The position numbers are program-made. From Escherichia coli 042 (GTDB taxonomy: Bacteria; Pseudomonadota; Gammaproteobacteria; Enterobacterales; Enterobacteriaceae), in NCBI RefSeq assembly GCF_000027125.1, contig NC_017626.1: a stretch of 64,000 nt of DNA, one strand, 5' to 3'. Within the stretch, counting starts at the first letter, position 1. Each line of letters opens with the position of its first letter. Below are positions 9,001-18,000 of this stretch, in pieces.

Positions 9001-12000
9001 ATACTGTGATCGGGCAAGATTCAGTAGCGGAAGCTCTCGTTCAATAAATGAATGTGAAAAGACTGGATAAATTGATGTAGGAAACCTTTCAGGTCTTATG
9101 ATATTTTCTATTTCCACCATAAATCTATCCATAGAAAGAAAGTCACTTTCTTTTTTTATTCTGGTATAGAGACCGCCTTTATTCCTTTCTGAGGTTTGTT
9201 TTCGTGCTATCCCCCCCAACACTTTCTCTAATTGTTTATTTATCTTCGTATAATTAAATACAACCATTCTTCTTATCATCCTCGGAAGGATAATAATATC
9301 AGTGCTTGAATCACTTGAGCGGCAATTATTATTTATCCATGCAACTTCAAGTTGCAGTATCGGAACATTAACTTTTCTGGGGTGAATATCTCTCTGATAT
9401 CGTTTTTTGTATGCGTTTTCATTAAGATATTCTCTGCTGTAGAGAAACTTATAGCAATATAATCTGATAATATCTTTTATGTAAAATTTAAATAGTTCAC
9501 CTGTAACAGATATATGTTTTCTGCTCAGTAACTCCTGTGTATTAAGCCATTCCCGTGACCGAAGCACACCCTTGTGAAAACTTTTTCTTACTTGCTTTGA
9601 AGCACGCCATTGATGTAATATTTTTGCGTCCTCAATAATTCTCTTTCCCGTTTTATTTTTTGCAGCATCTCTTACTCTATAAAATATCTCCCAGTCCAGA
9701 CTTTTGTCATATCTACTAATTATACGACAAATATTCCTGACCCGACGATTCTCTTTATTTCGCTTCCATAGCTTATAATGATCATCGCATAACCTTAAGG
9801 CATTTGCCTCATCAAATTCTGAAACAGGATTACTGCATTTTTTATTCCGACAGATACCTTTGTTTTTAGCCATACTCTTCTTCCCGTCAATGGAAAAATT
9901 TTCACACCCATATTACCTGAATGATAAACCGGATTAGTGTGATCCGGTTCAGTGAAATCAACAGGATACCGGTATGCCATTCAGCAATTCTTCCCTCTCC
10001 GCGCAAGTGAAATCATATCTGACGTTTCTTCCTGAAGAAATTCGCCAGAAAATCCTTGAACATCTCCACGGTGTTATTCATTACGAGCCCGTGATTGGCA
10101 TTATGGGTAAATCCGGCACCGGCAAAAGCAGTCTGTGTAATGCCATTTTTCAGTCCCGTATCTGCGCCACGCATCCCCTGAACGGCTGCACCCGCCAGGC
10201 TCATCGCCTCACCCTGCAGATTGGTGAACGCAGAATGACGCTGGTCGATCTGCCCGGCATTGGTGAGACACCGCAGCATGATCAGGAATACCGGGAGCTT
10301 TACCGTCAGTTACTGCCGGAACTGGATCTGATTATCTGGATCCTGCGGGCTGATGAACGTGCGTATGCTGCCGATATTGCCATGCATCAGTTTTTACTGA
10401 ATGAAGGTGCAGATCCCTCGCGTTTTCTGTTTGTTCTCAGCCATGCCGATCGCGTGTTTCCTGCTGAAGAATGGAATGCCACAGAAAAATGCCCATCCCG
10501 TCACCAGGAACTCTCACTGGCAACTGTTACAGCCTGGGTGGCAACCCTGTTCCCGTCATCATTTCCGGTACTCCCCGTTGCTGTGCCTGTCGGCTGGAAT
10601 CTTCCGGCGTTTGTGTCGCTGATGATCCACGCCCTGCCACCGCAGGCAACCAGTGCGGTTTATTCACATATCCGGGGGGAAAACCGCTCTGAACAGGCCC
10701 AGAAACACGCACAACAGACTTTTGGTGACGCCATCGGGAAAAGTTTTGACGACGCCGTTGCCCGGTTCACTTTTCCGGTCTGGATGTTACAGCTTCTGCG
10801 TAAAGCCCGGGACCGCATTATCCGCCTGCTGGAAACACTGTGGGATCGTCTGTTCTGACACACTCACGCCGACAGGATGTGTCGCTGGATTAACGAGTAT
10901 TCTTCTTTTTATGAAATCATCATTAAAAATCAGATAATTAAAGGAATATTTTTTCTGCTGCATTTTATTCCTGATTATTCAGATACGACACATCCTTTCA
11001 ACACCATGAGGCATAATAACATCATGAAATAAAAGATGTTTTCTTACGGAGTACACATCTATGTCTGATGATCGTTCCCGGCATGATCGTCTGGCGGTTC
11101 GCTTATCACTCATTATCAGCCGACTGATGGCCGGAGAATCTCTGTCACTAAAGACACTGTCAGATGAATTTGGCGTTACAGAACGTACTTTACAGCGCGA
11201 TTTTCATCAGCGTCTGGTTCACCTGGATTTAGAGTACAGAAATGGCAGGTACAGCCTCAGACGACAGAGCAGCCCGTGTGCGATCCCTGAAATGCTTTCT
11301 TTTATACAGAATACCGGGATCGCACGGATACTTCCGCTCCGGAACGGACGACTGATAACCTTTCTTACCGACAACCAGGAGCCCTCTCCCTGCCTTATCT
11401 GGCTGCCGGCGCCGGATATCACTGCAACGTTCCCCGAGTGTTTCTCGCAACTCATCCTGGCAATAAGACAGTGTATCCACATCTCTCTGATGACTGAGCG
11501 ATGGTATCCGTCACTGGAGCCCTGCCGGCTCATTTATTACAGCGGTAGCTGGTATCTGATCGCGTTACAGAAGGGAAAACTGCAGGTCTTTCCTCTGGCA
11601 GATATCAAATCAGTCAGCCTGACATCAGAACGGTTTGAACGGAGAGGCCACATCCACAGTCTGGTCGCTGAAGAGCGTTTTATCTCCGCCCTGCCACATT
11701 TCTCTTTCATCCATAAACTTATCAACACCTTTAACCTGTGATCGCCGGCCTGCCAAAGCCGTCCCGACAGGTATGGAGACAATATGTTGAACAGAAAACT
11801 AAATATACGGCTACGTCATTCCCTGAACAGTCACTGCATACCTTCCATCATTATCAATAACACCGTACGTTCATTTCAGAGGTCAGTCATGAATACCAGA
11901 GCTCTTTTTCCCCTGCTGTTCACTGTGGCATCATTCTCCGCCTCCGCCGGCAACTGGGCTGTCAAAAACGGCTGGTGTCAGACCATGACGGAAGATGGTC

Positions 12001-15000: not shown

Positions 15001-18000
15001 TTGCTGAACGCCGTAAGGACAGTTTTGGTCCGTATGTCCGGCTGATGAGCGTCACCCTGAACTGAGTCTGGAAGGGAATTCTGATGAGCAGAATTATCGC
15101 CACTACCGGACCATTCTTAACCGATTTTCTGTGAGGACTTTATCGTGTCAGACACACTCCCCGGGACAACGCCTCCCGACGACAATCACGACCGCCCCTG
15201 GTGGGGGCTGCCCTGCACCGTGACGCCCTGTTTCGGGGCCCGACTGGTACAGGAGGGTAACCGCCTGCATTACCTTGCAGACCGCGCCGGTATCAGAGGC
15301 AGGTTCAGCGACGTAGATGCGTACCACCTGGACCAGGCCTTTCCGCTGCTGATGAAACAACTGGAACTCATGCTCACCGGCGGTGAACTGAATCCCCGCC
15401 ATCAGCATACCGTCACACTGTATGCGAAAGGGCTGACCTGCGAAGCCGACACCCTCGGCTCCTGTGGTTACGTTTATCTGGCTGTTTATCCGACACCGGC
15501 AGCGCCCGCAACCACCGTATAACACCGGATATCTCCCCTTTATCACCACCTGTTACAGAGAACTTAAGATGAATACATTACCCGACACTCACGTACGGGA
15601 GGCATCGGGCTGCCCGTCTCCCATCACCATCTGGCAGACACTGCTCACCCGACTGCTGGACCAGCACTATGGCCTCACGCTGAATGACACACCGTTCGCT
15701 GATGAACGTGTGATTGAGCAGCATATTGAGGCAGGGATTTCACTGTGTGACGCGGTGAACTTTCTCGTTGAAAAATACGCGCTGGTACGTACCGACCAGC
15801 CGGGATTCAGCGCAGGAGCCCCGTCGCAGTTAATCAACAGCATTGATATTCTCCGGGCACGCCGGGCAACCGGCCTGATGACCCGCGATAACTACAGAAC
15901 GGTAAATAACATTACCCGGGGGAAGCATCCGGAAGCGAAACAATGAAACTGGCCCTGACGCTGGAAGCCGACAGCATTAACGTGCAGGCACTGAACATGG
16001 GGCGCATTGTCGTTGACGTCGATGGTGTTAATCTCGCTGAACTGTTTAATAAAGTCGCGGAAAATGGTTATTCACTCCGCGTGGTGGAGGAATCCGACCA
16101 ACAGTCAACCTGCACACTACCACCGTTTGCAACCCTTGCCGGCATACGCTGCAGTACCGCACATATCACGGAAAAGGATAACGCCTGGCTGTACTCGCTG
16201 TCACACCAGACCAGTGACTTCGGTGAATCAGAATGGATTCATTTCACAGGTAGCGGATATCTGTTACGTACCGATGCGTGGTCATATCCGGTTCTGCGGC
16301 TTAAACGCCTGGGGCTGTCAAAAACGTTCCGTCGTCTGGTTGTCACACTCATCCAACGTTATGGCGTCAGTCTCATTCATCTGGATGCCAGCGCTGAATG
16401 TCTGCCGGACCTGCCCACTTTCGACTGGTAACCAGGAACAACATGAAATCATTAACCACGGAAACCGCACTGGATATTCTGATTGCGTGGCTACAGGACA
16501 ATATCGACTGCGAATCGGGAATTATCTTTGACAACGATGAGGATAGAACGGATTCGGCAGCACTGTTGCCCTGTATCGAACAGGCCAGAGAGGATGTCCG
16601 TACCCTGCGTCAGCTGCAGTTTCTGCAACAGAACCGGTGAGTCTTACTCACCAGACTTCATTCCACTGACGCCAGCCTGAATACGGCTGGCGTTTTCGTT
16701 TATCTGCAAAAAGGAATATCGATTATGTCTGAAATCACAGCCTCTCGTCCGGAAGTGGTCAACGGGCATACGGACGTTATCTGCTCAACCAGTATCCGCC
16801 ACATTCTGGCTGTACGAAAGAGTACATTGCTGCAAATCGACACACTTATCCGACAACTGGCTGAAATATCAGCAATAACAGAAAGTATTAGAGGTAAAAC
16901 GGCTCTGGACTGGGCCATGAAACAGGATTTTCGCTGCGGTTGCTGGCTGATGGAGAAACCGGAAACCGCAATGAAAGCCATCACACGCAATCTTGATCGC
17001 GAACTCTGGCGTGATCTGATGCAACGTTCCGGGATGCTGAGTCTGATGGATGCGCAGACCCGGGACACATGGTACAGGTCACTGGAATATGATAATTTTC
17101 CGGAAATCAGCGAAGCGAACATTCTGAGCACATTTGAACAACTGCACCAGAACAAAGATGAAGTGTTTGAACGGGGAGTGATCAACGTCTTCAAAGGGCT
17201 GAGCTGGGATTACAAAACCAACTCACCCTGTAAATTTGGCAGTAAAATTATCGTCAACAACCTGGTGAGGTGGGACCGGTGGGGGTTTCATCTTATCACC
17301 GGGCAACAGACTGACCGACTCGTCGACCTGGAAAGAATGCTACATCTGTTCAGCGGCAAACCGATCCCCGACAACCGGGAAAACATCACTATTCGTCTGG
17401 ATGGTCACATCCAGTCCGTTCAGGGTAAAGAGCGCTATGAAGACGAGATGTTCATCATTAAATACTTTAAGAAGGGATCTGCACACATCACTTTCAAAAG
17501 GCTGGAACTGATTGACAGAATTAACGATATAATAGCCAGGTACTTTCCTTCTGTGCTCTCAGCCTGATCCCGAGTGTGATTCCCTTTCGATATCAAAAGG
17601 GACTGCGGGTATAATTGAGGGTACATTTTTAATCAAACCAAACAAATTGCATTAATATCAATATGATAAAAGAAATTTTCGATTCCGAGTCCGGCACCAC
17701 TAATTCTTAAGAACCCGCCCACAAGGCGGGTTTTTGCTTTTGGATCTTTATATAAAATAAACTTGGGAGCATAACGCCATCAGGTCTTAAACACTCCCGA
17801 ATCATCAATAAACATCCCCCGCTAACAAAACACAGTTCAGTTCACATAACATCCCTGTTATCCCACACATATCTGCTGGCCGAACGACGCCAGTGCGCGT
17901 ACGGAGGCAAGAGCAGCCCTGCACATGGCAGCGCTTGTGGTAACCTGGTTTAATCCGGTGAAAGAGGCGTTTTACATGCATCTGCCAGCAGCCGGAAAAA

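Follow-up and report, generated by a model that had tools for sequence, protein, structure and literature searches.

The nearest described relatives of the locus analysed here are the elements CP4-44, CP4-57 and CP4-6 of Escherichia coli K-12 and the genomic islands of other E. coli strains. CP4-44 encodes the type IV toxin CbtA (YeeV), overexpression of which leads to growth arrest and lemon-shaped cells, and the antitoxin CbeA (YeeU), which rescues growth without directly binding the toxin. CP4-44 has the order yeeP-isrC-flu-yeeR-yeeS-yeeT-cbeA-cbtA-yeeW, with a YeeP-type GTPase pseudogene at its left end and a yeeW truncated to 64 aa, after which comes a short DUF957-like remnant; it lacks an integrase (PMC5371832). 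CP4-57 and CP4-6 are integrated at ssrA and thrW and carry extra lipoprotein genes (yfjS/yfjT, yafY/ykfB), and the toxin-antitoxin pairs of K-12 sit close to attachment sites (PMC5371832). The leuX-associated island of UTI89 and the leuX-region island of O157:H7 both lie near nanM. An island with antigen 43 (Ag43, encoded by flu or agn43) occupies the pheV/kps site (for example, TC_EC10) and represents the type described in the literature for the UPEC 536 and CFT073 islands.

We compared these systems with a block of genes at positions 9974-17567 of a 64-kb stretch of the E. coli 042 chromosome (the window). The synteny and identity comparison showed that the block and the K-12 'CP4' backbones belong to one element family, as originally predicted: from RadC to CbtA, identities are 85-100% to CP4-44 and 57-82% to CP4-57 and CP4-6. 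Our preferred reading, to which we assign a probability of about 0.78, is that an island of the P4-integrase type has integrated at pheV in an encapsulated E. coli and that the block forms its conserved arm, at the end away from the integrase; this arm natively lacks Ag43 and most likely acts as an entry-and-retention kit.

Gene content of the block

ORF analysis and Pfam searches showed that 13 intact genes, all on the + strand, fill the block, which extends from the ATG of the GTPase ORF (9974) to the stop codon of the DUF4942 ORF (17567), exactly the interval first proposed. The same 13 gene models are present in the RefSeq annotation of the corresponding locus in E. coli strain H3, to which the block is 100% identical. 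Parts of it were matched in 5033 of 5426 complete E. coli genomes, with a median of 3 copies; such end sections of E. coli genomic islands are well known and very widespread, and this one is ordinary. The order is YfjP-family GTPase, WYL/HTH regulator, exported protein, DUF905, DUF932, ArdB, RadC-like JAB, DUF987 (YeeT), CbeA, CbtA, DUF5983 (full-length YeeW), DUF957 and DUF4942. The ten genes named in the original prediction, including the retained toxin-antitoxin, antirestriction and RadC-like genes, are all there, intact and with strong Pfam scores for every named family, but DUF905, DUF957 and DUF4942 had been missed.

The left half opens with the 294-aa GTPase (9974-10858; Pfam MMR_HSR1 4.6e-15, Dynamin_N 1.7e-10; RefSeq 'YfjP family GTPase'), which has an intact P-loop (GKSGTGKS) and DLPG motif. 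It is 93-95% identical to the copies in UTI89, O157 and APEC, 37% to the Ag43-linked GTPase, 36% to YfjP, 34% to YkfA and 29-32% to YeeP. The 226-aa regulator that follows (11061-11741) combines an HTH with a WYL domain (HTH_11 6.6e-5, WYL 4.6e-5; PADLOC WYL model 2.4e-18) and is 98.7% identical to its UTI89 and O157 counterparts and 43% identical, over its full length, to K-12 YfjR. Next are a 225-aa exported protein (11889-12566), with four invariant cysteines and a signal peptide that ends in SASA before a G, and a small YkfF-like DUF905 protein (12572-12805; Pfam 9.4e-27; 56% identical to K-12 YkfF and 53% to the DUF905 gene of one IncF leading region). A terminator-like hairpin identified by consensus scan only (12826-12855; 13-bp stem with 9 GC pairs and a T-rich tail) suggests a possible transcription-unit boundary. 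Beyond it lies the 272-aa DUF932 protein of the YfjQ/YafZ family (12895-13713; Pfam 2.1e-50; 74% identical to both YfjQ and YafZ). Two structure models yielded no informative fold match.

The right half begins with a 161-aa protein (13804-14289) assigned to the ArdB/KlcA antirestriction family by its Antirestrict domain (PF03230, 2.4e-37) and its PDB matches (2WJ9, 2.8e-99; KlcA 2KMG, 1e-20). It is 75% identical to YfjX (LfgA) and 65% to YafX, which, like the ArdB of a CFT073 island, inhibit type IA-ID restriction in vivo (PMC2836571). The adjacent 158-aa RadC-like JAB-domain protein (14305-14781; Pfam RadC 1.5e-44) is 99% identical to YeeS, 82% to YkfG and 78% to YfjY/LfgB, the last being a reported protease that cleaves the antitoxin MqsA (PMC10846083). 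It is followed by the small DUF987 protein (14844-15065; 1.9e-39), which is 100% identical to K-12 YeeT.

The antitoxin gene cbeA (15145-15522; 125 aa, GTG start; CbeA_antitoxin PF06154, 1.6e-54; RefSeq cbeA) lies directly upstream of cbtA on the same strand, with a gap of 46 nt. CbeA matches PDB 2INW (2.2e-87) and 2H28 (YeeU; 2.2e-77) and is 93% identical to K-12 CbeA. CbtA (15569-15946; 125 aa) matches CbtA_toxin (PF06755, 5.5e-62) over the full model, positions 1-112 of 112, and is 85% identical to K-12 CbtA. With a full-length toxin domain and an antitoxin domain encoded upstream, the locus is a predicted CbtA/CbeA type IV system. The toxin keeps F65, the FtsZ-contact residue, and at position 15 has Cys, as do YpjF and YkfI, where K-12 CbtA has Arg. 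The R15C change weakens MreB binding by K-12 CbtA, but YpjF and YkfI, with their natural C15, are still toxic and still block elongation (PMC5624674).

The cbtA stop overlaps by 4 nt the start of a gene for a 162-aa DUF5983 protein (15943-16431; DUF5983_N 1.9e-29, DUF5983 9.4e-22), the full-length form of the truncated K-12 YeeW (71% identity over 52 aa). A 65-aa DUF957 protein (16443-16640; RefSeq annotation of the identical H3 locus; 91-97% identical in sibling islands) and a second terminator-like hairpin (16668-16694; consensus scan only) precede the DUF4942 ORF (16725-17567), which is also a RefSeq gene model at the identical H3 locus. DUF4942 was left unnamed in the original prediction even though it falls inside the interval given there.

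Comparison with CP4 elements and sibling islands

Gene order agrees with that of K-12, as had been claimed, in the right half only. The CP4-44 block yeeS-yeeT-cbeA-cbtA-yeeW is collinear with the window copies, at 99, 100, 93, 85 and 71% identity. By contrast, the GTPase gene stands at the left end in both, but the window does not contain the YeeP-type GTPase followed by isrC, flu and yeeR, and CP4-44 lacks the WYL regulator, exported protein, DUF905, DUF932, ArdB and DUF4942, all of which are present here. CP4-57 and CP4-6 share the GTPase, DUF932, WYL (as a remnant only in CP4-6), DUF905, ArdB, RadC, DUF987, antitoxin and toxin families with the window, have no Ag43 and, like the window, carry the toxin-antitoxin pair at the element end near the attachment site. 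However, identity to the window is only 33-82% (57-82% for the RadC, DUF987, CbeA and CbtA paralogues), DUF5983, DUF957 and DUF4942 are missing, the integration site here is pheV, and the left half is arranged as GTPase-DUF932-WYL rather than GTPase-WYL-exported protein-DUF905-DUF932.

The UTI89 and O157:H7 islands have the same backbone subtype and the same gene order through DUF957, and the GTPase-to-DUF957 proteins match those of the window at 85-99.6% identity. DUF4942, intact in the window, is truncated to a 5' remnant in both, and both islands lie in the leuX region rather than at pheV. UTI89 shares the divergent upstream neighbour hyp407 (99% identity), whereas O157 has an unrelated 376-aa gene in its place; further upstream, both islands have a Gp2-family gene, as does the window.

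The Ag43-bearing pheV island has the same chromosomal site, attR and kps flank as the window (98.4% identity from 17677 onward) and shares DUF905 (69%) and DUF932 to DUF4942 (86-99%). In its left part it has, in place of the window's GTPase, WYL regulator and exported protein, a GTPase of 37% identity followed by agn43, an 838-aa protein and IrmA; it also carries an additional 214-aa gene upstream of the antitoxin and, downstream of DUF4942, a toxin-antitoxin pair of the AbiE type.

The reported absence of Ag43 was borne out by blastn and tblastx searches with two flu alleles, which gave no match anywhere in the 64-kb window; nor did blastn/tblastx detect isrC, yeeR or flu remnants in it. The accompanying claim that Ag43 normally follows the GTPase does not hold for this backbone, as Ag43 goes with a YeeP-type GTPase only 29-37% identical to that of the window. 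Two subtypes can be distinguished. One, found here, has the YfjP-like GTPase, WYL regulator and exported protein, and is common and natively without Ag43; in the other, of the YeeP type, the slot from GTPase to DUF905 is filled by Ag43, a YeeR-like protein and IrmA. An uninterrupted GTPase-WYL junction was found in 1629 of 5426 genomes, among them O157:H7 and UTI89 (leuX island), and the junction of YeeP-type GTPase and Ag43 occurs in 4036 of 5426.

That a CP4-44-like element once had flu after the GTPase and later lost it in this strain or lineage might be read from the RadC-to-CbtA right half, 85-100% identical to CP4-44, from agn43 being carried by other islands at the same pheV/kps site, and from a mosaic identity pattern indicating that paralogous backbones clearly recombine. 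Yet Ag43 is missing from all sampled members of this GTPase lineage, three sampled loci without the WYL gene are also without Ag43, and the slot is occupied by two intact alternative genes with no scar. Moreover, all that the Ag43-type left arm (GTPase, agn43, 838-aa protein and IrmA; 7.6 kb) and the K-12 yeeP-to-yeeR segment (5.5 kb) have in common with the window is a stretch of 71 nt in the GTP-binding region, close to the 5' end of the GTPase gene. We consider deletion of flu extremely improbable, and already largely refuted. Because the GTPase is of a different lineage, its junction with the WYL gene is contiguous in 1629 genomes and flu, isrC and yeeR have left no trace, the absence of Ag43 is normal for this subtype and not a deletion.

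Position at pheV and the prophage label

About 110 bp past DUF4942 begins a copy of the 3' end of the tRNA-Phe gene pheV. This attR (17678-17747, + strand) consists of the last ~23 nt of the tRNA with one G missing (17678-17700), followed by native downstream sequence that includes a terminator hairpin (17708-17736; consensus scan); over 71 nt, the region shares 98.6% identity with the K-12 pheV 3' end and downstream sequence. This repeat is the exact point at which sibling islands diverge or rejoin: identity to H3 ends at 17747, and the match with the Ag43-type pheV island restarts at 17677. K-12 yghD sequence resumes at 35638, and the island does not include the kps capsule locus. The window covers the attR side, with attL, the pheV gene and the integrase end beyond it. 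The attR copy of a tRNA 3' end points to a tRNA-integrated island, and the block is the attR-proximal arm of this pheV-integrated island.

The original description of these backbones as cryptic prophages follows a historical label, CP4-6, CP4-44 and CP4-57 having been named P4-like cryptic prophages. If the block were a genuine defective prophage, its genes would be decaying phage functions, a reading to which an inovirus Gp2-family gene upstream (5556-6287) and short DUF4942 similarity in a few coliphages (about 200 nt, 72-74%) lend something. We nevertheless judge it very unlikely. Phage structural, lysis and packaging genes were not found among the window ORFs, and the module was in none of 50,697 phage records except for one unannotated 3.2-kb fragment. 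All 13 genes are intact and 86-99% conserved across islands, so the pattern is not one of decay, and outside the chromosome the nearest homologues are on conjugative plasmids, in their leading regions.

DUF932 homologues (about 63% identical) occur in at least 5000 enterobacterial plasmids, with 4436 predicted to be conjugative among the matches listed. One IncF plasmid has homologues of DUF932 (63%) and DUF905 (53%) in its leading region, which borders on the tra genes and also contains ssb, psiB and hok. Plasmid leading regions, which adjoin an oriT, enter the recipient first and usually contain ssb or psiB, are described as anti-defence islands rich in anti-restriction and toxin-antitoxin genes of one orientation (PMC11541004), and by the criteria of that study the arm resembles one, with 13 of 13 genes on one strand, ArdB, CbtA/CbeA and the DUF932 and DUF905 families. 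The IncF leading region likewise has co-oriented small genes, including a toxin-antitoxin system, but this is Hok/Sok rather than CbtA/CbeA. Neither Pfam searches nor RefSeq annotation revealed a relaxase gene, ssb or psiB in the arm. It also lacks hok and tra genes and, unlike the IncF region, sits in the chromosome beside a tRNA attachment site; the analogy is one of shared gene families and co-orientation only.

Proposed entry and retention role and possible defence role

The original prediction raised the possibility of interaction with defence cargo. PADLOC recognised no defence system among the island ORFs tested, assigning none of hyp407, hyp176, the exported protein, DUF932, DUF5983, DUF957, DUF4942 and the Gp2-like protein to a defence family, and the upstream cargo of the H3 island consists of microcin H47 genes and IS elements rather than defence genes. 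The arm might itself be a defence system, or counter-defence tuned to island cargo, for example abortive infection controlled by the GTPase and WYL protein with CbtA as effector. Defence islands often contain WYL regulators and toxin-antitoxin pairs, the C terminus of the GTPase has a weak PADLOC LeoBC match (6.2e-7), the neighbouring slot in CP4-57 holds the anti-phage systems AbpAB and RnlAB, and the UTI89 and O157:H7 islands have a restriction endonuclease upstream. We know of no tested anti-phage phenotype for CbtA/CbeA and, given the PADLOC results and the H3 cargo, regard a defence role as unlikely.

We favour instead a role for the arm as an entry-and-retention kit, which is most likely what it provides to the island. 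By analogy with its tested relatives, ArdB would block type I restriction of incoming DNA, and DUF932, DUF905 and the RadC-like JAB protein, which belong to families of conjugative elements and leading regions, probably help establishment. We infer that the arm works as such an establishment module and that the WYL protein regulates its genes. The CbtA/CbeA mechanism is established in K-12, whose pair is 85% and 93% identical to the window copies. The genes of the arm are presumed to be expressed and active. Other CbeA-like antitoxins (a median of three paralogous copies per genome) could cross-neutralise the toxin, blunting addiction. CbtA would poison FtsZ and MreB unless counteracted by CbeA, so that loss of the island would be penalised.

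Gene content and limits of the island arm

The 13 open reading frames (ORFs) in 9974-17567 all lie on the + strand, with spacing from a 4-nt overlap up to 202 nt, and RefSeq has the same 13 gene models for the copy in E. coli strain H3, which is 100% identical. The block opens with a GTPase (9974-10858; Pfam MMR_HSR1 4.6e-15, Dynamin_N 1.7e-10), a regulator with Pfam HTH_11 and WYL domains (11061-11741) and a 225-aa exported protein without a family match (11889-12566). These are followed by genes that match Pfam families: DUF905 (12572-12805; 9.4e-27), DUF932 (12895-13713; 2.1e-50), the antirestriction protein ArdB (13804-14289; 2.4e-37), a RadC-like JAB protein (14305-14781; 1.5e-44), DUF987 (14844-15065; 1.9e-39), CbeA (15145-15522; 1.6e-54), CbtA (15569-15946; 5.5e-62) and DUF5983 (15943-16431; 1.9e-29 and 9.4e-22). 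DUF957 (16443-16640, from RefSeq annotation) and DUF4942 (16725-17567; Pfam 1.3e-65) complete the block. The original prediction had placed the limits of this backbone exactly, as judged by both ORF and RefSeq gene models, and the genes that it named are all present, but it left out DUF905, DUF957 and DUF4942. DUF5983 and DUF957 (15943-16640) are distinct ORFs with 11 nt between them; another possible ATG start, at 16398, falls within the end of DUF5983. A preprint from 2026 argues that AntiFam ANF00264, a family deemed spurious and located beside DUF5983 and cbtA, is real and may arise by programmed frameshifting.

Terminator-like hairpins 3' of DUF905, DUF957 and the attachment site attR, found in a consensus scan only, suggest at least three transcription units. 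The promoter scan was uninformative because it returned 7 promoter-like sites against 8.3 expected. A search of the whole window with Rfam at gathering thresholds found no match in 9974-17567, the GTPase-WYL intergenic stretch included. Its only hits fell elsewhere: a JUMPstart element, described below, and the C0719 sRNA at 54357-54578 (+; 297 bits).

The segment 17678-17747 repeats the final ~23 nt of tRNA-Phe pheV, minus one G, and then continues into the native sequence downstream of pheV with its terminator hairpin; it is 98.6% identical to K-12. The pheV 3'-end copy at 17678-17700 marks attR. It was recognised by reading the sequence, and a blastn comparison with K-12 bore it out; an exact-pattern search that tolerated 3 mismatches to the 3' end of pheV missed it because of the 1-nt deletion in the copy. 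The match to strain H3, 99.99% from 5500, ends at 17747, the match to an Ag43-type pheV island starts again at 17677, and K-12 yghD picks up again only at 35638. From the pheV repeat, these identity breakpoints and the position of yghD, the 13 genes are the final 7.6 kb of a pheV-integrated island, ending ~110 bp short of attR, while the kps locus lies outside that island as an insertion of its own. attR is a clean divide between the arm and the capsule locus. In the K-12 elements, the toxin-antitoxin pair likewise lies close to the attachment site (PMC5371832).

The kps capsule region occupies 17748-35637, a ~17.9-kb separate insertion between native pheV downstream sequence and yghD, and strain H3 has an identical island without kps. 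An IS110-family transposase remnant (about 17800-18090) precedes the region, Region 2 (about 27-33 kb) has a GC content of about 28-30%, and a JUMPstart element (34610-34648, -; Rfam 58.5 bits) lies at the 5' end of the 33805-34641 ORF. As kpsF and kpsE are found downstream of the arm, the host is an encapsulated E. coli.

Antigen 43 and backbone subtypes

The match to K-12 cryptic-prophage backbones proposed for this gene order was upheld for the RadC-CbtA stretch of CP4-44, in which YeeS, YeeT, CbeA and CbtA are collinear with, and 99%, 100%, 93% and 85% identical to, the RadC, DUF987, CbeA and CbtA proteins of the arm. K-12 YeeW (64 aa) is a truncated form of the 162-aa DUF5983 protein. CP4-57 and CP4-6 depart from the proposed order: the same families recur there, 57-82% identical, in the arrangement GTPase-DUF932-WYL, and both elements lack DUF5983, DUF957 and DUF4942, all three of which are found in the arm. 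The arm GTPase shares only 29-36% identity with YeeP, YfjP and YkfA, and the WYL protein is 43% identical to K-12 YfjR.

An island in the leuX region of UTI89 and an O157:H7 island keep the order of the arm through DUF957, with proteins 85-99.6% identical, but reduce DUF4942, intact in the arm, to a 5' remnant. Two APEC/food isolates carry the same arm without WYL. Another island, located at the pheV/kps site of the arm, bears Ag43: its DUF905 (69%) and DUF932 to DUF4942 (86-99% identical) correspond to those of the arm, whereas agn43, a gene for an 838-aa protein and IrmA lie between DUF905 and a GTPase 37% identical to that of the arm. In a further sibling island (NZ_AP045796.1, locus positions 9363-10559), an insertion with blaCTX-M-55 breaks the arm inside cbtA, making the backbone a landing site for this resistance gene.

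The reported absence of antigen 43 was borne out, as two flu alleles found no match by blastn or tblastx across the whole 64 kb. Loss by deletion would be one explanation. The GTPase-WYL junction of the arm, however, occurs uninterrupted in 1629 of 5426 complete genomes, with the YeeP-Ag43 junction present in 4036, and at loci with an arm-type GTPase but no WYL gene the exported protein comes directly next (three of three sampled). Moreover, the sole stretch that the window has in common with the 7.6-kb Ag43-type left arm and K-12 yeeP-to-yeeR is 71 nt long, near the 5' end of the GTPase gene and across its GTP-binding region. Deletion is therefore rejected: on these sequence comparisons, Ag43 is a trait of another backbone subtype, and the slot between GTPase and DUF905 takes alternative gene sets. 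For future readers of such windows, the missing Ag43 should be taken as the marker of a distinct and common subtype.

The module or parts of it matched in 5033 of 5426 genomes, at a median of three places per genome and a maximum of 18, in agreement with published variation in CbtA copy number (up to eight copies in ST73; PMC10790755). The arm is an ordinary, previously described island backbone of the common Ag43-less subtype. As a discovery it is minor: its exact sequence is already in annotated RefSeq genomes, its tested components ArdB and CbtA/CbeA have been characterised, and the module or parts of it occur in >90% of complete E. coli genomes. The observation in the original prediction is confirmed, and its interpretation as a whole is partly supported.

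The upstream region and its cargo

Interplay between the backbone and defence cargo, also anticipated, has nothing to act on within the window. PADLOC detected no defence system among ten island proteins, matching only generic WYL models and, weakly, LeoBC, and the part of the island visible in the window holds IS elements plus an acyltransferase. Upstream cargo in strain H3 includes microcin H47 genes. The 800-5400 region is rich in IS elements. By offset from the annotated collinear H3 locus, we placed there a truncated gene of the H-NS family and an HTH gene with a frameshift (about 827-1663), the acyltransferase (2103-2555) and an intact IS30 (3233-4384) inside an IS3/IS600-type element; the same offset puts an inovirus Gp2-family gene at 5556-6287.

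The LeoBC match (E 6.2e-7) covers residues 185-289 in the C-terminal half of the GTPase, the G domain of which gave only generic, Era/Der-like matches. LeoBC is a dynamin-like protein of the Eleos defence system, and the G domain also matches Pfam Dynamin_N. The exported protein has a signal peptide and four cysteines that are invariant in its family, which is small and restricted to Enterobacteriaceae; its structural model (pLDDT 79.5) showed only generic IalB-like and cystatin/PepSY-like resemblances.

Two hypothetical proteins lie upstream of the GTPase. One, hyp407 (407 aa; 8650-9873, -), is oriented divergently to the GTPase gene, AT-rich (31-35% GC) and has a Cys-rich N-terminus; it had no match in Pfam, NCBIfam or PADLOC, and its homologues form just 16 clusters, from E. 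coli and, at 33-37% identity, Citrobacter and Klebsiella. The other, hyp176 (176 aa; 6957-7487, +), has no family match; it occurs together with hyp407 in about 542 genomes and is missing from the UTI89, O157 and APEC sibling islands. PADLOC found nothing for either of these, the Gp2-like protein or the uncharacterised proteins of the arm, and NCBIfam held no specific family for hyp407, hyp176, WYL, the exported protein, DUF5983, DUF957 or DUF4942. UTI89 has hyp407 at 99% identity, whereas a 376-aa gene with only the first ~45 and last ~26 residues in common replaces it in O157, and 269-aa and 310-aa genes do so in APEC. In CP4-57, the corresponding slot, from the Gp2-like gene to the GTPase, is occupied by the anti-phage systems AbpAB and RnlAB.

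Probable role in entry and retention, and likeness to plasmid leading regions

Several components of the arm have studied relatives. ArdB matches PDB 2WJ9 at 2.8e-99, and ArdB-family proteins of CP4-6, CP4-57 and an island in CFT073 act indirectly to relieve restriction of types IA-ID in vivo (PMC2836571). LfgB, the RadC-like protein of CP4-57, is a reported protease (PMC10846083). CbtA blocks division and elongation by binding FtsZ, through F65, and MreB (PMC5624674). The antitoxin paralogues YafW and YfjZ each counter their own toxin, and CbtA/CbeA of K-12 is classed as type IV (PMC5371832). The arm CbtA keeps F65 but has Cys at position 15, compared with Arg15 in K-12 CbtA, in which R15C weakens MreB binding and F65S affects FtsZ (PMC5624674). 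The natural C15 paralogues YpjF and YkfI nevertheless remain dual inhibitors (PMC5624674), and we draw no functional conclusion from Cys15. The arm is probably the island's entry-and-retention kit: ArdB, aided by DUF932, DUF905 and the RadC-like protein, would shield and establish incoming DNA, CbtA/CbeA would penalise loss of the island, and the WYL protein may regulate the arm genes.

Among 50,697 phage records, none carries the module. At least 5000 plasmids of enterobacteria, of which 4436 are predicted to be conjugative, carry DUF932 homologues at ~63% identity, and one IncF plasmid has DUF932 (63%) and DUF905 (53%) in a leading region with ssb, psiB and hok, beside tra genes. Co-oriented genes for anti-restriction and toxin-antitoxin functions are over-represented in such regions (PMC11541004). 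By analogy, the arm could function as the leading region of a mobilisable island whose cargo slots are exchangeable, a reading that we consider unlikely, at perhaps one chance in five. The island would then be excised and conjugatively mobilised with the arm first into the recipient, where ArdB, DUF932, DUF905, RadC-like and CbtA/CbeA, all co-oriented, would be expressed early under WYL control, overcome restriction and lock the island in. Exchangeable cargo would occupy both the GTPase-DUF905 slot (Ag43/YeeR/IrmA or WYL/exported protein) and the slot from the Gp2-like gene to the GTPase (hyp407 in the window, AbpAB and RnlAB in CP4-57). The K-12 label of cryptic prophage conceals that the arm resembles plasmid leading regions and not phages. 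If the cargo-slot reading is true, hyp407 could be a defence or exclusion gene of a kind not yet described.
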